In this document: positions 12,792 through 46,150 of the stretch, in pieces
Numbering within the stretch: position 1 is the stretch's first letter
Layout: each line of letters opens with the position of its first letter
Source of the DNA: a virus
DNA: 64,000 nucleotides
IMG/VR virus record: IMGVR_UViG_3300022602_004810
Span: 1-64,000 of that record
Direction: 5' to 3' (one strand)
The notes under the pieces: generated by a model
Database searches by the model: none
Told to the model about the DNA's origin: nothing
The model's input: only the letters and a program-made list of their open reading frames with translations
Translations under genes and position numbers: made by a program

Positions 12792-13004
12792 TTGTTGGCT
12801 TTGAAGTTTCTTCTTCCAACGATTTTTAGCTGCTGCAGCTTTACGTTTTTTCTTCGTAGTAGGTTTTTCGTACTCGCTACGATCACGTAGTTCTTGAAGT
12901 AGACCGCTGTCCTGAATCTTCTTCTTAAATTTTCGAATAGCCTGTTCTGCGTTGTCATTACGAACGTAAACTGTGCCACCTTTCAATGAATTTTCAAATG
13001 CCAT
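12771..13004 (-). CDS. rpsU: Ribosomal protein bS21
   Basis: VYVRNDNAEQAIRKFKKK...GLLQELRDRSEYEKPTTKKKRKAAAA. Confidence 0.92.
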   Translation of the reverse strand: MAFENSLKGGTVYVRNDNAEQAIRKFKKKIQDSGLLQELRDRSEYEKPTTKKKRKAAAAKNRWKKKLQSQQLPDKLY

Positions 13005-28917: not shown

Positions 28918-29229
28918 CTAGGTAATAATGCCACTAGCTGCCGCAGGTTTAATGCCTGTTGTAGTTTGGATGTAGTGATTTTCTACATCTTTAATTGTTG
29001 GCGAGTGTAACATCACATGACCTTTGTCAACGGTCATACTCTTATTTAAGTCACTTGTGAATAGGCTTTGAATCAAACCAATGCCATTGGCACTTGGAAT
29101 TACAGTGCATGGTCTGCTGACTGTAAAACTAGTTGGTGTATCTTCTACAATTTTAGCGACGATTTCGTCACCGTTTACTAATTTGAAACTTACTATTGTA
29201 TCTTTATCATATGGTTTATTTGTTAACAT
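28918..29229 (-). CDS. Conserved phage protein (possible Sm-like fold)
   Basis: IVSFKLVNGDEIVAKI...YIQTTTGI. Confidence 0.55.
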   Translation of the reverse strand: MLTNKPYDKDTIVSFKLVNGDEIVAKIVEDTPTSFTVSRPCTVIPSANGIGLIQSLFTSDLNKSMTVDKGHVMLHSPTIKDVENHYIQTTTGIKPAAASGIIT

Positions 29230-35492: not shown

Positions 35493-36323
35493 CCAGTGTG
35501 CAGGAAATCGTACTTGATCTAACTCTTCTTCTTTAATTTCTTTAATTTCAAATACAGGTTTGGACATTTCTTTATATTCACCTATTGCAGAATGCCATGT
35601 TAAATCTTGTGGGCAGAACTCACACTGTAGAATGTTTTCATCTTTGGTTGCAACAAAATCTTGCAGGTCCTCTTCAGAACAATCTGCTGTTAAAGGTCTG
35701 TAACTATATAGTAATTCACGTTGTCTATCATCCAATCTAAGGTCAAATTGTTTATCAAATTCAGGAAGGCCGCTCATGGCAGGGCATTTATACAATTTAC
35801 CATTATACATAGTATGATCATGTTTCATATCACAGGCATTAAATGCGTTTATAGCATTACTATTGTGCAGGATCCAATGATCATCTTGTTTAATCACGGT
35901 ACTTTGATGGAAAGTAAATGCTTCTATCGGTCCTGCTAGGGATTTCCATTGTTCTTTTAAAGCATCTGCTGTTTCTGGATTATGCAGACTTAGCCCAAAT
36001 CCAACAGCATATTCATCCCATAATTTTTTATATTGAGGTTTGAAGTACGTACCGTTTGTTTGTATCATAATCACAGCATTAGGCCATAGTCTGCGCAGAT
36101 TAGCACACCATTTTTCTAAGTCAGGATTAAGGGTAGGTTCACCACCTATAATAGTAATACGTGGTAAATCTAATCGTTTACTCCATGCTTCGTATTCAGC
36201 TGCATGATCATCCCAATATTGATGGCCCTTAAAGTGCAAATCATTGAAACGATTGCATCCACGACAGGCGAGATTACATACATTGGTTATATAGAATTCT
36301 ACTACAGGAAATATCTTGATCAT
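35472..36323 (-). CDS. Radical SAM protein
   Basis: CNLACRGC, GGEP, TNG, C-terminal Cys cluster (KCP...CEFC). Confidence 0.9.
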   Translation of the reverse strand: MIKIFPVVEFYITNVCNLACRGCNRFNDLHFKGHQYWDDHAAEYEAWSKRLDLPRITIIGGEPTLNPDLEKWCANLRRLWPNAVIMIQTNGTYFKPQYKKLWDEYAVGFGLSLHNPETADALKEQWKSLAGPIEAFTFHQSTVIKQDDHWILHNSNAINAFNACDMKHDHTMYNGKLYKCPAMSGLPEFDKQFDLRLDDRQRELLYSYRPLTADCSEEDLQDFVATKDENILQCEFCPQDLTWHSAIGEYKEMSKPVFEIKEIKEEELDQVRFPAHWLTTNNK

Positions 36324-36728: not shown

Positions 36729-37415
36729 TTAGCGACGTTCACGACCAAGTTCTTCTGCGCCGCCTACAGCAGCATCAGTTGCAGCAAAGCCGTCTGACTC
36801 AGGTTCTTCTTGATCGAAGTCGCTTGGTGGAGGCAATTCTCCGCCCATTTCTCCGCCCATATCTGGTTCGCCACCTAAATCCATTGGCTGCGGAGCTTGA
36901 CCTGTTAAAATACCTACGCCACTATCAACACCTTCGCGTGCAGCTTGTAGATTTTGCATTAATTGATCTAGCGTACTACCGACCGCTTGTTTAAAGCTAT
37001 CAGCTTGCTCATTGCCAATTTGGTCACGGATGCTGTCAAGCAATTGTGGAAGTTGTTCATTTTGCATTTTACCAACTTTCTCAATTGTATCTTGAATACT
37101 GTCAACCATATCTTTAGCAGCTAGTAATACTTCAGCATTACCAACTTCACCTTCGTTTAATTGGCGGCGACTTTGTTCTAACCATGCTGAAAGTCCCTCA
37201 CGAACAGTTAGTAATTCCATATAACGTGGATTACGTTCTGCTGTGTGTAGGTTTGAGCTATGACGAATCTTGTTTAAGTTAGCTTCAATCGTTTCACTTA
37301 AACGTTCTGCTTTTTCAACAGTCAATTTATCAAAATTAATAGAAAAACCAAAACGGCTTTCCATTAGTTTGTTAATCTTTTTAGGCGATTTAGATGCCAT
37401 TTCTGATAGTTTCAT
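36729..37415 (-). CDS. Putative head/scaffold-type protein
   Basis: MKLSEM start, LNE site, helical core, acidic tail ending LGRERR; TAAATA upstream. Confidence 0.55.
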   Translation of the reverse strand: MKLSEMASKSPKKINKLMESRFGFSINFDKLTVEKAERLSETIEANLNKIRHSSNLHTAERNPRYMELLTVREGLSAWLEQSRRQLNEGEVGNAEVLLAAKDMVDSIQDTIEKVGKMQNEQLPQLLDSIRDQIGNEQADSFKQAVGSTLDQLMQNLQAAREGVDSGVGILTGQAPQPMDLGGEPDMGGEMGGELPPPSDFDQEEPESDGFAATDAAVGGAEELGRERR

Positions 37416-37431
37416 GGGTAATAGGTCCTAA

Positions 37432-37953
37432 TTACAGTTTTATATATTTAGCCAGATTTAGATTTTTCTTGATTTCTTTCTTTGCCTGGGCAACTCTATT
37501 CATTGTTTCTTGGTAACGAGTACTATAAAATTCCTCGCCCCATTGATCTTCATTTTGCTGTGCTTTTTTATAGCGAATACGATATAAGGCCGCATCAAAC
37601 TCTAATCTATTTAGTAGACTATCTGCCTCTTTAATATTATGTGCTAGTTGGTATTGTTGCTTATGTAGTGCTATGCAATAGAATATAGCATCTTTGCGAT
37701 TAAAGAAATTAAATAATTGCGAACTACCATCCATAACTTGCCAGGTTTGTTCGTTGATTTTTACCACACGATAACGACCCACCAGGACATCTGTGCCAAT
37801 CTGATAGCATAAAGGTAAGTCACTAGATACTGTTGTGATCTTTTCAAGTTCTTGTTGGGTAAAGCGTTTGATTTTTTCTACATCAAACGTTTCATTAGCG
37901 GATTCGTTTTTTGTAGTAGATTTTGCCATTTTCGTTGGTGCGTAGTAGAACAT
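37432..37953 (-). CDS. Hypothetical protein (start uncertain)
   Basis: ORF in a gene-dense operon. Confidence 0.55.
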   Translation of the reverse strand: MFYYAPTKMAKSTTKNESANETFDVEKIKRFTQQELEKITTVSSDLPLCYQIGTDVLVGRYRVVKINEQTWQVMDGSSQLFNFFNRKDAIFYCIALHKQQYQLAHNIKEADSLLNRLEFDAALYRIRYKKAQQNEDQWGEEFYSTRYQETMNRVAQAKKEIKKNLNLAKYIKL

Positions 37954-38104
37954 CTTTATTTGTTAATTGATTAGCCAGCACCTGCTCACGTTCATCTAAG
38001 TGAGATTTGGCAATAGGGGTATCACCAACAAAACGTTCAAGCAATGTTGCTTCTTCGTTATTGATGGGTAATTGTATGTTGTTGATCAGTTCTACTATCT
38101 TCAT
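37895..38104 (-). CDS. Small conserved protein
   Basis: Start MKIVELINN at 38104, 5 nt after TAAATA. Confidence 0.6.
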   Translation of the reverse strand: MKIVELINNIQLPINNEEATLLERFVGDTPIAKSHLDEREQVLANQLTNKDVLLRTNENGKIYYKKRIR

Positions 38105-38115
38105 AGTAGTATTTA

Positions 38116-38379
38116 TTACTTGAGAAACTCGTGGCCAAGATAACCAAGGAGTGCTGAAAGGAGTACGCCAAGAATAGTAACTGTCCAACCCATAACATTT
38201 GTGCTACGGTTTTCTAGTTTAGTTTCAAGACTGTCTTTAATATTGATAAGATACATTTCCATCTTATCCATACGTTGTTCAAGGTTGTTTAGTTTCGTAT
38301 CCAAAGCGCCGTACCTCACAGCACATATTTCAACGTGGGCTTCTAAACTCTTCTTCTCAATATTTGTAGGTGTGGTCAC
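38116..38379 (-). CDS. Small coiled-coil protein with C-terminal TM helix (holin/XhlA-like architecture)
   Basis: GTG 38379 with GAGGAG SD; LEAHVEICAVRY coiled coil followed by WTVTILGVLLSALLGYLG. Confidence 0.55.
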   Translation of the reverse strand: MTTPTNIEKKSLEAHVEICAVRYGALDTKLNNLEQRMDKMEMYLINIKDSLETKLENRSTNVMGWTVTILGVLLSALLGYLGHEFLK

Positions 38380-38396
38380 CGCTCGTCTCCTCAACG

Positions 38397-38451
38397 ATGC
38401 CGTCTACTATGCCTTGATATTATGCCTTAATATGTGCCTTAATGAATGCCT
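38397..38451 (-). repeat. Five periodic (A)GGCA(T/C) repeats in a 5' leader
   Basis: Units start at 38397, 38409, 38422, 38434 and 38446 (period 12-13 nt), between TAAATA and the SD. Confidence 0.8.
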
Positions 38452-38475
38452 GTAGCATCAAGTAATATTTATTAA

Positions 38476-38898
38476 TTACAGCAAAGTTTTAAAGTATATG
38501 TTATTCCAAGGACCTTTGGGATAGAAAAAAGGGCGTTCTGGTTTGGCTGTTTCTGTTAGACCCAGGATAATAGGAGTAATGTTAAAATCATATTTAACAA
38601 GTCCAAACTTATCAGGCCCTTCTTGATAGATATCAGAATATTCTACTGAGAATTTAAATGTCCAAATACTGTGCTGTCCGCTATAATTAATTCCAAAATT
38701 ATAGCCATTAGTAACATCATCTTTAAGTTGCCATGTGCTGATAATTGTAGGTTGAGTGCGTAGGCTTAGAATCTGTTGTACAGTTTCCCAATTGCGCTGT
38801 TGATTGCGCTCTAGCGCACGTTCAGCGGTATGATTAGTTACCCCTGTTGGAGTAACGTCAATTAACGTAAAACCTTGATATAGATATTGATTAGTCAC
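38476..38898 (-). CDS. Conserved hypothetical protein
   Basis: TLIDVTPTG, RNQQRNWETVQQILSLRTQP; start moved to GTG 38898 because the track's extension spans a terminator and a promoter. Confidence 0.65.
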   Translation of the reverse strand: MTNQYLYQGFTLIDVTPTGVTNHTAERALERNQQRNWETVQQILSLRTQPTIISTWQLKDDVTNGYNFGINYSGQHSIWTFKFSVEYSDIYQEGPDKFGLVKYDFNITPIILGLTETAKPERPFFYPKGPWNNIYFKTLL

Positions 38899-38902
38899 TA
38901 GG

Positions 38903-38910
38903 TATTTATA
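38903..38910 (-). promoter_or_regulatory. T4-type late promoter TATAAATA
   Basis: Exact consensus 4 nt before GTG. Confidence 0.65.
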
Positions 38911-38916
38911 GACAAT

Positions 38917-38945
38917 AAAAAAGCCCTTATAAAAAGGGCTTTTTC
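38917..38945 (-). terminator. Intrinsic terminator (possibly bidirectional)
   Basis: AAAAAGCCCTT-loop-AAGGGCTTTTT. Confidence 0.85.
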
Positions 38946-38968
38946 TATTCAATAACTAATTGTTTAGA

Positions 38969-39352
38969 TTAGTATGTGAATGCTGTTATAGTTGCACCTG
39001 CTACACCAGAACCATTGATTACAGTGTTAGCGTATGCTTGTAAGCTGTAAGCACCTGTTGAAGCTGCTGGAGCTGCACCAGATAACGCTACGTGGAATAA
39101 GTTACCTGATTGCGGAGCACCTAAAAGCTCAATAGAACCAACTTGCTCAATAGCTAAAACTAATTTTTCATAGTCTGAACCAGCTGCTAAGTAGTTTAAG
39201 TTTGTACCGTTACCATATGTGTATAATGAAGCTGATGTAACTGTGTAGTGTGTAAGTTGACGACCTGTGATCTGAGCATTACCTGCTGAAGAACCGTCTG
39301 CTGGACGTGAACCACCGTTTACACGGCTAATTGTTGTTGCTGAAGCTACCAT
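38969..39352 (-). CDS. Putative abundant virion protein
   Basis: A/G/S/T-rich; own TAAATA, strong AGGAG SD and own terminator. Confidence 0.55.
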   Translation of the reverse strand: MVASATTISRVNGGSRPADGSSAGNAQITGRQLTHYTVTSASLYTYGNGTNLNYLAAGSDYEKLVLAIEQVGSIELLGAPQSGNLFHVALSGAAPAASTGAYSLQAYANTVINGSGVAGATITAFTY

Positions 39353-39398
39353 AATATTTCTCCTAAAATAATTTTACGCTTATTGCGCTTAATATTAT

Positions 39399-40640
39399 TT
39401 AGCCTTTTGATAAAAAATTAGTTCTAGAGAAGGTTAAACGATCAACTAATTTAACAGCGCCACCATTGTGACCTATAGCCACAAATCCCTCTGGCGCTGT
39501 TACTCGATAACCGTCTGTGGTCTTTTGGAATGTACCAATACCTTCAACTTGATTTAGTTTGTGTATTAGCATGAGTTTTAATTCAATGATGCGTTTGTAT
39601 GTAGCAATAACACCTAATAGGTTATTACTGTTGTCTGCGATCCAATCTTCACGTGCTTTGATCTTAGCTACACGAGCCTGTGCCGCACGACCTTCTAAAC
39701 CGCCACTTAATTGTTCGATACCTTTCATCATTTCTAATTCATAATGCTTAATAAAGTTCTTTAAGAACTGCAAAGGTTCACCTACATGACTGCCACTGCG
39801 TATCTGCTGATTAATGAAAGGTTTAATCATACGACTAAATTCTTTATCTTGTAGAACAATATCAAAACGTTGTTGGCCTAATTTGTTCATTGTGTCAAGT
39901 GTAGCATCTAGATTGCGTTGTATCTTAGTATTTTCACTAGGAGTTAGACTTGCTACACCTGTGTAGTCTTTGTAGGTAGCATCATCAAACCATACGTTTT
40001 TAGTTTGTGTAAATCCGCCGACATTAACTCCAAACTCTGCAGTCATTGTGTCAATTGATTCACCTGTATAGCTAGTATGGAATATAATACCAATCTGTGC
40101 GGCAGCAATGCGCTGCCCTAGATGGCTTTTAACTGGCACCGCATAGGTAATTGTATTTGGAGTAAACACATAGCAATCTTCTTCGTTAACATTAACTACT
40201 GTAAGATCTCCCGGAGTGAACATTAGGTCACCTTGCACAACTCCGCCAATACGTAATTCGCGTAGATATTTTAATGCGGCTTCCAACATTGCTGATAGTG
40301 TAGGTTCGTGGCCATACCATTGTTCAATATCTTTGGTTGATTTACAGCGTTTAGGTTGTGCTTTGGAAAATACTGACTTAGTGCCAACAAAGAAACGACC
40401 ATCTTCTGGATCTGTGCCACAGATAATTGCTGGGCTACCGTCCCATTTAACCGTTAGCTGTGTTGTTGTACCTGTGCCTTCTGCTAGCATCTGACGTAGA
40501 CTGTCGATATAATTTAGTGCTTCTTGTGCGCCTGCCCATCCCTTGTTAAAGATAAGATCTTCAAGATGCTCAAGGTGTGTGTTCTTACTTTCTGTAAGTA
40601 ACCATTGTGGGGTTTGTTTCTTAATTTCGTATAGTTGCAT
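39399..40640 (-). CDS. Conserved T4-like jumbo-phage protein
   Basis: KNTHLEHLED, TVKWDGSPA, QGDLMF, PNTITY, PEGFV, KLVDR motifs (KWDG and EGFV recall the ligase-like nucleotidyltransferase fold). Confidence 0.65.
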   Translation of the reverse strand: MQLYEIKKQTPQWLLTESKNTHLEHLEDLIFNKGWAGAQEALNYIDSLRQMLAEGTGTTTQLTVKWDGSPAIICGTDPEDGRFFVGTKSVFSKAQPKRCKSTKDIEQWYGHEPTLSAMLEAALKYLRELRIGGVVQGDLMFTPGDLTVVNVNEEDCYVFTPNTITYAVPVKSHLGQRIAAAQIGIIFHTSYTGESIDTMTAEFGVNVGGFTQTKNVWFDDATYKDYTGVASLTPSENTKIQRNLDATLDTMNKLGQQRFDIVLQDKEFSRMIKPFINQQIRSGSHVGEPLQFLKNFIKHYELEMMKGIEQLSGGLEGRAAQARVAKIKAREDWIADNSNNLLGVIATYKRIIELKLMLIHKLNQVEGIGTFQKTTDGYRVTAPEGFVAIGHNGGAVKLVDRLTFSRTNFLSKG

Positions 40641-45123: not shown

Positions 45124-46150
45124 GTAACTTTTTCCTCATTAGTTCAATTTTTAACTTACTTGATTCTCTAGCATCTAAAATGCTCTTAAGCACAAATAGT
45201 TTACCATATTTAACCACAGCTTCATTAATATCTTTACAGGTCTCTTGCCATACAGGAAAGCTAGCCGACCAGCCATATTCCATTGCGTTTTGTAGTAATT
45301 TTGCACCCGCCTTATCACGATCTGCCACTACAATAACTTCTTTGCCTAAGCTCTCAATGATTTCAGCTTGAGTTTCACTACACTCATTGCTCATGACTGC
45401 AACACCATCTACTGACATCGCATCAAATGGGCCTTCACAGACTATGACAAACTTACTATCAGGTAGTTGATTGTTTATGTTGAACACAAAGTTAGGTTCA
45501 TAGTTGCTATAGTATTTAGGCTTAACGCCATCTACAAACGCACGGCTAGTGTAGCCAATGGTCCGACCTTCCCAAATCATAGGAATGATCACACGTTGAT
45601 GCAGGCTGTGTTCTGTGCTATCAGTCCAATAAAAGTCATACTTATCGTAGTTCATTTTACGACTGTTTGTGTAGTCAACAGCTGAGTTTAGTAGTGGGGG
45701 TACATTTTTAAAATCACTCAATGTGTAAAATGATATGAATTGCTGAAAGCTAAGTGCATCTTTGGGCAGTTCTCTGACCTTAAACTCAATCTTTTCTTCA
45801 GCTTCAGCTTTAACTTCTTCTGGGTTAACTAGTTCACGGATACGAATAGCTTCAATAACTAGGCGTTTAATGTCGTTTTCATCAGCACCTAACCAACGTA
45901 AGAGTTTACGGAATTTGAATGTTAAGTGACGACCTGGTTGATAACTAGCTTTGAAGTTACAATTGAAACACGAATATGAGATACTCCCGTCAGCATTAGC
46001 CGTAAGTCCGCCTCTGCCTCTAGTGTCGGCTGTTTCGCCGTTGTGTACGCAACATGGAGCATTTCCTGAAATCCAGCCAGATGGACTAGACTTTGTTTTG
46101 CGTCCAGTTTTCCATAAGGCTACAGTAAAATCTGATATTATTTTAATCAA
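45116..46150 (-). CDS. DNA primase (T4 gp61-like)
   Basis: Zn-binding CCVH...CFNC; TOPRIM EGPFD, DRD, KDIN. Confidence 0.9.
   Translation of the reverse strand: MIKIISDFTVALWKTGRKTKSSPSGWISGNAPCCVHNGETADTRGRGGLTANADGSISYSCFNCNFKASYQPGRHLTFKFRKLLRWLGADENDIKRLVIEAIRIRELVNPEEVKAEAEEKIEFKVRELPKDALSFQQFISFYTLSDFKNVPPLLNSAVDYTNSRKMNYDKYDFYWTDSTEHSLHQRVIIPMIWEGRTIGYTSRAFVDGVKPKYYSNYEPNFVFNINNQLPDSKFVIVCEGPFDAMSVDGVAVMSNECSETQAEIIESLGKEVIVVADRDKAGAKLLQNAMEYGWSASFPVWQETCKDINEAVVKYGKLFVLKSILDARESSKLKIELMRKKLHA

Follow-up and report, generated by a model that had tools for sequence, protein, structure and literature searches.

An array of AGGCA words in the leader of a small membrane-protein gene of uncultured giant phages: a candidate translational operator

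Introduction

The window considered here, a stretch of 64,000 nucleotides (nt) comprising positions 1 to 64,000 of the IMG/VR virus record IMGVR_UViG_3300022602_004810, carries on its minus strand a gene for a predicted membrane protein of 87 amino acids (aa), the leader of which displays five regularly spaced copies of a short word, four of them AGGCA and one CGGCA. We judge the odds to lie slightly in favor of this element being a multi-word, unstructured translational operator. The anatomy of the leader, its conservation, the signatures of single-strandedness in the array, the covariation of a hairpin beside it and the sharing of the word by the leaders of three genes are direct observations.

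Translational operators of phages are, to our knowledge, known almost only from T4 and its close kin, and among the papers listed by a limited full-text literature search, judged in part by titles, none was met that describes AGGCA as a phage leader word; the one listed paper containing the word is, by its title, about the timing of restriction-modification. Here a strict five-letter RNA word at a regular 12-nt pitch is conserved over freshwater and marine uncultured giant phages, and it ties together the leaders of three unrelated genes, namely those for a protein that binds single-stranded DNA (SSB), the replicative polymerase and the small membrane protein. Should one reader serve all three, replication proteins and a late membrane protein would be coordinated after transcription; the word is also a ready search key for further targets in metagenomes.

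Results

The original prediction described five evenly spaced GGCA repeats between 38379 and 38471, and both the repeats and their coordinates hold. The minus-strand GGCA words begin at 38450, 38438, 38426, 38413 and 38401, with gaps of 12, 12, 13 and 12 nt (Table 1); the array of five words spans 54 nt, and Tandem Repeats Finder detects it with a period of 12-13. The doublet AAGGCAY-N4-8-AAGGCAY has two matches in the window, both inside the array, as compared with a mean of 0.01 in shuffled sequences, none of 100 of which reaches two. This is the only place in the whole 87-kb record that has the doublet, and no other AGGCA array was found on that 87-kb fragment.

A TAAATA box lies 86 nt before the start codon, which makes the leader unusually long by the window's standard. 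A late promoter of the T4 type has a TATAAATA-like box that stands about 6 nt ahead of the point where the transcript begins and is recognized by a sigma factor of the gp55 type. In the window TAAATA is found 50 times on the minus strand, which bears the genes, as opposed to 25 times on the plus strand, and it stands 4-45 nt upstream of many gene starts; this strand bias and this position before starts fit a T4-type late promoter core. Between 38380 and 38475 no sigma-70-type promoter and no terminator were found. At gathering thresholds the 64-kb window has no match in Rfam, a search the original prediction had called for; within 38100-38700 the only matches are two at chance level, with E of 6.1 and 9.4, each of them on the opposite strand. 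Searched with the DNA of 37400-39400, phage GenBank records returned no match.

Other TAAATA boxes of the window stand much closer to a start. On the minus strand at 38102-38120 the stop of the 87-aa gene overlaps a TAAATA, and the ATG of the next gene (38104) follows 5 nt on without a Shine-Dalgarno (SD) sequence. TAAATA-N4-5-ATG starts of a similar kind occur at 36323, 19427 and 1122, and such starts suggest leaderless late mRNAs.

One check proposed by the original prediction was an alignment of orthologous leaders, and here the repeats persist. Orthologues at 49-98% identity were collected from 80 viral-contig loci, 7 of which lack upstream DNA, and the leader with its repeats is kept in all 73 of the others. 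Invariant in 32 of 32 distinct aligned leaders are TAAATA, GAUGC, the 11-mer AUUAAGGCACA, the third GGCA, the fourth GGC, and GCAUCG. Between pairs of sequences, identity averages 0.78 over the leader as opposed to 0.60 over the gene's third codon positions. When three additional scans brought in more distant members of the family, 262 loci with 160 nt upstream (some contigs retrieved by two scans) fell into a long class of 157 loci with leaders of at least 80 nt, nearly all with 2-6 GGCA, and a short class of 101 loci with fewer than 40 nt after TAAATA (leaders of 5-40 nt) and 0-1 GGCA; the remaining four are intermediate or have no TAAATA box. Unique leaders number 133, 80 of them long and 53 short. 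On a quick maximum-likelihood tree of 163 unique proteins (87 columns, with many of its forks left unresolved), at least five clades that lie well apart from one another contain arrays, one of these clades being marine, and the array label needs six changes. Searched for with a covariance model, the window-type leader has a single strong copy in every one of five large records and no copy in two near-complete genomes of 320-337 kb from a short-leader clade.

Of these two genomes, G007 (337,119 bp) has direct terminal repeats and is complete, and G008 (320,541 bp) is 93% complete. G+C content is 46% in the 320-337 kb relatives and 36-42% in array-bearing contigs.

The composition of the arrays was taken from 44 representatives that share less than 50% of their 8-mers. 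Each holds three to six words; 123 of 133 gaps measure 10-14 nt, with a mode at 12 and a full range of 9-16 nt. The letter before GGC is A in 85% of cases and the letter after it is A (86%) or U (14%), followed by C (53%) and then A (62%). Among the 184 GG dinucleotides there are 153 GGCA, 24 GGCU, 5 GGGC, 1 GGGA and 1 GGAU, so that 177 of 184 are GGCA or GGCU. The spacers, which vary by clade and are always poor in G, contain 4.4% G, 19% C and 49% A; over these arrays it is the word that is conserved rather than its context. Compared with mononucleotide shuffles, 41 of the 44 fold worse as RNA, at a mean z of +1.08. Taken with the covariation described next, in which G-U pairs take part, this avoidance of G on one strand and this under-folding argue for a function in RNA and against a DNA operator; they point to the array being a single-stranded RNA platform.

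The hairpin between array and start codon, P2, shows CG-to-UA covariation in the RNAalifold consensus of the close set. In a larger alignment of 36 leaders, which was fitted to the model and hence leans towards structure, two-sided changes occur at all three modelled pairs, G-U pairs included; the covariation score is 0.243 versus 0.113 in shuffles (none of 500 reaches the native value) and at most 0.10 in slid controls. On these comparative grounds P2 is the one structured part of the leader with evidence behind it. The stem that the original prediction drew between GAUGC and GCAUC (P1) has fared unevenly: it is 97% paired in the leaders compared and appears in the RNAalifold consensus of the alignment, and it is absent from the minimum-free-energy structure of the window, in which GAUGCU pairs locally with word 1 (GAUGCU:GGCAUU) and no loop is closed by GAUGC and GCAUC. 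The folds, computed as nested structures, gave either the 5' hairpin GAUGCU:GGCAUU or the long-range P1. The whole leader of the window is no more stable than shuffles (z -0.47). In its predicted ensemble the arm GGCAUCGUU, which contains word 5 and GCAUC, pairs with the GUG start region, leaving the GUG unpaired with a probability of 0.04.

The AUG within GAUGC opens a frame of 12 codons in the window (38455-38420, minus strand; MLQAFIKAHIKA, then a stop). It looks like a possible leaderless mini-ORF. A conserved leader peptide was considered and set aside, as the length of this frame changes from lineage to lineage: it stops after 2, 6 or 12 codons or stays open.

The word is not confined to the small gene. 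Clusters of words were sought in five large related contigs and in the window's own record, and no more than three genes have non-coding clusters of at least three words beside them: the gene of the small membrane protein (in G000, G001, G005 and G006), the SSB gene and a gene for a DnaE-type polymerase. Other clusters sit within long open reading frames (ORFs), and shuffling yields 0.8 clusters over all six sequences.

The SSB family (phrog_1192, E 6e-69; no Pfam match) has one to three AGGCA in its leaders in five of five large contigs, among them the two genomes without a small-gene array. In viral contigs, 66 unique regions upstream of SSB genes average 1.12 words per 120 nt versus a background of 0.133, an approximately 8-fold enrichment, with no word in 22 regions, one in 27 and two to four in 17. 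Several SSB leaders contain an identical AUUAAGGCACAU followed by a true SD, AUUAAGGAG. In related genomes the SSB gene is located elsewhere, and it is absent from the 87-kb fragment of the window. SSB upstream regions (loci L366-L445) also show a promoter-like pair TTGACA-N17-TATAxT with TAAATA between the hexamers, a long hairpin in which the -10 hexamer lies and, ahead of the SD, a conserved AAGACCAnCUUAA element.

For the DnaE-type polymerase (PF07733) the enrichment is steeper. The leaders contain two to three words in G007 and G008 and four in G006, and all 42 unique upstream regions have two to four (mean 2.69 versus 0.132, approximately 20-fold). These leaders run in the order TAAATA, hairpin with lineage-variable arms, words, AUG, with the last word at SD distance. 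The word being common to SSB and DnaE leaders, the platform would belong to a small regulon, and the array appears to be part of that regulon rather than a private device of the small gene.

Since the word stands in SSB and polymerase leaders whether or not a genome has the small-gene array, a reader should occur in genomes of both classes; SSB itself, a phage IF-1 and host factors would all fit. We compared the presence and absence of ORFs between four array-bearing and two array-less contigs. Phage bS21, present in all four of the former and absent from the two near-complete array-less genomes, was dropped as a candidate after a Pfam search of further contigs, all of them fragments, located it in 4 of 13 that have the array and in 6 of 11 that lack it. 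The Sm-like protein encoded at 28918..29229, which the original prediction had put forward as a possible binder, is likewise discarded: it has homologues in the array-less G007 and G008, and none was found in the array-bearing G005 and G006. Searches for RegA (PF01818) gave no match at E≤1 in eight of eight records, including the complete G007 and the 93% complete G008; for the RegB family none above cut-off in five of five (best 14.7 bits versus a cut-off of 27); for CsrA none in five of five phage records, host CsrA being outside the search; and for Hfq none above cut-off in the phage records searched. One of five records, G005, has a cold-shock domain. Relatives also encode IF-1 (PF01176, E 7.8e-19) and an Hc1-type histone-like protein (PF07432); the G005 stretches noted in connection with bS21 and these proteins are 106064-106291 and 245130-245306.

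The product of the small gene has a coiled-coil N-terminal part and a single C-terminal hydrophobic helix. Its family comprises 455 cluster representatives at E≤0.001, has no informative name in the sources consulted and shares a strongly conserved N-terminal motif, IEKxSLEAHVE(I/L)CA(V/E)RY. The window protein matches phrog_1193 ('hemolysin') at E 1.2e-4, as do 14 of 18 orthologues at E≤0.01 (best 4.2e-7); its match to Pfam XhlA (PF10779) reaches 14.3 bits (E 0.046), below the gathering cut-off of 34.7, and 14 of 18 orthologues match that family at E≤1 (best 0.0082). These profile matches suggest resemblance rather than membership, 'XhlA-like in layout' at most. The neighboring genes give PHROG 'virion structural protein' matches and DUF6267, and no lysis cassette and no holin or endolysin partner was seen among the 10 ORFs between 36729 and 42770 plus 28918..29229. 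The description 'holin-like' in the original prediction is unsupported because the XhlA and coiled-coil matches are weak and no lysis partner was seen.

The upstream gene (38476..38952) has no Pfam match and a merely marginal PHROG match, and its homologues immediately precede the small gene whether or not a genome has the array. At 38896-38952 on the minus strand, within the ORF as listed with 158 aa, there are a terminator-like hairpin (38945..38917) and a TAAATA at 38908; given these, the gene probably begins at a later GTG, four nt past TAAATA 38908, and would then encode about 139 aa almost without a leader.

Table 1. Features of the leader region and related loci (window positions unless a contig is named)
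Feature	Position	Strand	Description
TAAATA box	38471-38466	minus	putative T4-type late promoter core
GAUGC	38459-38455	minus	5' arm of consensus stem P1; its AUG lies at the predicted 5' end or close to it
Five-word array	38451-38398	minus	AGGCA at 38451-38447, 38439-38435, 38427-38423 and 38414-38410; CGGCA at 38402-38398
GCAUC	38400-38396	minus	3' arm of P1; overlaps word 5; contains CAU, the start-codon complement
Hairpin P2	38397-38383	minus	UCGUU (38397-38393), loop GAGGA, GACGA (38387-38383)
SD GAGGAG	38392-38387	minus	within loop and 3' arm of P2
GTG start codon	38379-38377	minus	downstream of array, P2 and SD
Small membrane-protein gene	38379..38116	minus	87 aa, GTG start; predicted tail-anchored coiled-coil protein
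Upstream syntenic gene	38476..38952	minus	C-terminus ...NIYFKTLL; ends 4 nt before the TAAATA box
bS21 homologue	12858-12980	minus	tblastn E 1.9e-5 to a G005 protein that matches PF01165
Polymerase leader, G006	149599-149646		DnaE-type polymerase gene (PF07733)
Polymerase leader, G007	~95404-95450	minus	DnaE-type polymerase gene (PF07733)
Polymerase leader, G008	~46020-46068		DnaE-type polymerase gene (PF07733)
Polymerase leaders, further loci	L446-L525		DnaE-type polymerase gene (PF07733)

Discussion

The reading that we favor, at a probability only just above even, is that of a multi-site translational operator read by one trans-acting factor that binds single-stranded RNA. Transcription from the TAAATA box, an action on translation and the existence of a single reader are what we infer. 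A late mRNA would have the interval 38459-38380 as its 5' untranslated leader, the core of which is an unfolded, G-poor RNA displaying three to six copies of A-GGC-A(C/A) about 12 nt apart, with a small hairpin carrying or abutting the ribosome-binding site after the array. The words would be read as single-stranded RNA by one factor, and the frequency of ribosome starts on the small membrane-protein gene would depend on how far the array is occupied. This factor would also read the word in the SSB and DnaE-type polymerase leaders, where the last word lies on the ribosome-binding site; because the same word stands in the leaders of three genes, one reader probably controls all three. Part of this was anticipated by the original prediction, which proposed a binding platform that times translation of a possible lysis or membrane protein: the conserved leader behind TAAATA, the regular spacing, the single-strandedness and the recurrence in distant clades fit the platform, whereas the lysis label is unsupported.

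That the reader is the phage SSB, after the manner of T4 gp32, is the leading guess, to which we give a chance well short of even. A reader that kept the words single-stranded could open the GUG start in the window and block the SSB and polymerase mRNAs; word 5 lies within the arm GGCAUCGUU that pairs with the GUG start, and for that reason a reader could open it. Free SSB, or another single reader, might in this way sense the state of replication and act with opposite signs through one word, turning SSB and DnaE off and the late membrane protein on, a scheme we regard as distinctly improbable. Were it true, AGGCA would mark a regulon controlled after transcription in a widespread lineage of aquatic phages of 300-340 kb, the end of replication would fix the time of membrane or lysis events, and both a second mRNA target and an activating mode of a phage SSB would be new; we know of no second mRNA target of gp32 in T4.

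Several observations weigh against the favored reading. None of the 24 sequencing runs that contain the stretch is listed as RNA, while at least 17 runs from lake water have its DNA. As many as 49 of the 66 SSB leaders have only zero or one exact AGGCA, and the six-contig comparison brought up no convincing RNA-binding candidate that tracks the array. P1 never covaries, and its pairing is for that reason unproven. The stability order of the P1 and GCAUC-start conformers is inconsistent among leaders, and over 45 leaders the start is unpaired with a probability of 0.29 in native sequences versus 0.35 in shuffled ones (lower in 28 of 45, p 0.024, among related sequences), an effect so weak that start-codon sequestration was given up as a family-wide rule. 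All of the sequence sets are phylogenetically related, so that counts overstate the number of independent events. The T4 gp32 site size is about 7 nt, with which the 12-nt period here does not match. Finally, the words contain AGG or AAGG, and the last of them lies at SD distance in SSB and DnaE leaders; a reading at the level of the ribosome therefore remains a real rival.

On that reading, which we hold to be unlikely while taking it seriously, the array would consist of weak SD-like sites (UAAGG, GAGG) on an unfolded leader that holds 30S subunits on standby and raises translation, perhaps with ribosomes altered by bS21 or IF-1, both of which these phages encode. An unfolded, G-poor leader is what one expects of standby sites. 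The window-clade word, AUUAAGG-CA, is close to the true SD of related SSB genes, AUUAAGG-AG, and the AUG in DnaE leaders, as in the SSB leaders of G005, G007 and G008, has the last word 2-8 nt ahead of it and no SD besides. As a pre-ATG word AGGCA ranks second and fifth among its 30 letter permutations in G007 and G008. In the array-bearing genomes, however, it ranks 9, 12, 8 and 10 of 30, and with no enrichment over letter permutations there, AGGCA as a general ribosome site was rejected. The invariant C after GG breaks the pairing with the anti-SD, and the stronger GGA(G) accounts for at most 2 of the 184 GG, which ribosome affinity does not predict; the small gene has a canonical SD of its own downstream of the array, and bS21 fails to track the array. 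If the ribosome were nevertheless the reader, phages that have bS21 and IF-1 as well would be using an initiation signal of a new kind. A possible pairing of GGCAC with the 530 loop of 16S rRNA was set aside as a 5-mer coincidence.

The words might also be cut rather than bound. In T4, according to one account of its regulation, RegB cleaves GGAG in intergenic regions, and secondary structure protects from it (PMC3014915); an endoribonuclease that followed such a logic at AGGCA would inactivate SSB and polymerase mRNAs and process the small-gene leader, and a short strict word in unstructured RNA over the ribosome sites of replication genes does resemble the RegB target rule. We think this very unlikely: the five records searched for RegB are without a match above cut-off, and a cleavage site has no need of three to six copies at a regular 10-14 nt spacing. 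Little credence, again, is due to operators or iteron-like repeats for a DNA-binding protein just downstream of the late promoter. The repeats are direct, near one helical turn apart (exactly 11 bp in locus L150) and adjoin a promoter-like box, and the phages encode DNA-binding proteins such as the Hc1-like one, but spacing varies over 9-16 nt within and between arrays, G is depleted in a strand-specific manner, RNA folding is poorer for the arrays than for shuffles, the hairpin beside them shows covariation with G-U pairs, which have a meaning for this strand's RNA alone, and the words extend to the start codon in the SSB and DnaE genes. A cis switch that needs no reader, in which GAUGC, as a copy of the start region, and the start codon compete for GCAUC with the array as a flexible spacer, strikes us as hardly probable either. 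GAUGC and GCAUC are indeed invariant in the close set, the ensemble of the window is dominated by the GCAUC-GUG start pairing (-21.0 of -21.1 kcal/mol, as opposed to -16.0 for the P1 conformer), and the two conformers are at most 2 kcal/mol apart in 13 of 30 leaders. Such a switch leaves unexplained why the word is strict and regularly spaced and why it stands in SSB and DnaE leaders and in marine arrays without GAUGC/GCAUC, and start sequestration is just weakly above shuffles. Two further readings were dropped: a boxA/nut-like role of the hairpin, the sequence of which is not kept in the window, and Rho loading, as some repeat units, for example in L150, have no YC dinucleotides.

Comparison with known systems places the operator that we favor among familiar designs without making it a copy of any. 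As regards the gene product, XhlA has a role in the lysis of PBSX, and XhlA-type proteins (PBSX XhlA; PF10779, phrog_1193) resemble the 87-aa family in size, in the N-terminal coiled coil and in the single C-terminal membrane helix; the 87-aa family differs in its own N-terminal motif and in having no adjacent holin or endolysin partner in the genes scanned. As regards the leader, CsrA/RsmA and TRAP are systems in which several short purine words along a leader are bound by an oligomeric RNA-binding protein that controls translation or attenuation. CsrA needs GGA, usually in hairpin loops, and TRAP reads 9-11 (G/U)AG triplets 2-3 nt apart. The original prediction held the present motif to be distinct from both, and so it is: GG is followed by C in 177 of 184 cases, in contrast to the GGA of CsrA, and the words lie in unpaired, G-poor RNA; and there are three to six words 10-14 nt apart, unlike the closely set triplets of TRAP.

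Among phages, the pelagimyophages are described as having curli genes and S21 in genomes of 132-164 kb (PMC7029224). The present phages are like them in curli genes (according to the original prediction), S21 and radical SAM, and differ in genome size. Closer in regulatory logic is T4, which, in the same account of T4 regulation cited for RegB, autoregulates its polymerase and has in RegA a small protein that acts on some 30 mRNAs, replication genes included, by competing with ribosomes at unstructured sites by the AUG (PMC3014915). That regulon logic matches the proposal made here for SSB, polymerase and the small gene. RegA sites differ, being A+U-rich, single at the AUG and without a strict word, and RegA itself (PF01818) was not found in the eight records searched.

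The closest known design is the operator of T4 gene 32. There, a 5' RNA pseudoknot is the nucleation site for cooperative binding of SSB, which represses translation. The operator is described as a folded 5' element and, after it, a less structured stretch of RNA, over 40 nt long, that has UUAAA/UAAA repeats and the ribosome-binding site and to which SSB binds cooperatively (PMC535899). The leader of the window departs from it in several respects: it heads the gene of an 87-aa membrane protein and not the SSB gene; its word is AGGCA with a period of about 12 nt as opposed to UUAAA/UAAA; and a covarying hairpin separates the array from the start. Like the T4 and RB69 operators, it has an unstructured leader of more than 40 nt with repeated short words, here 54 nt and five words; and the likeness extends further, in that the SSB leaders of the phages studied here carry AGGCA themselves and the word of the window clade is preceded by UUAA.

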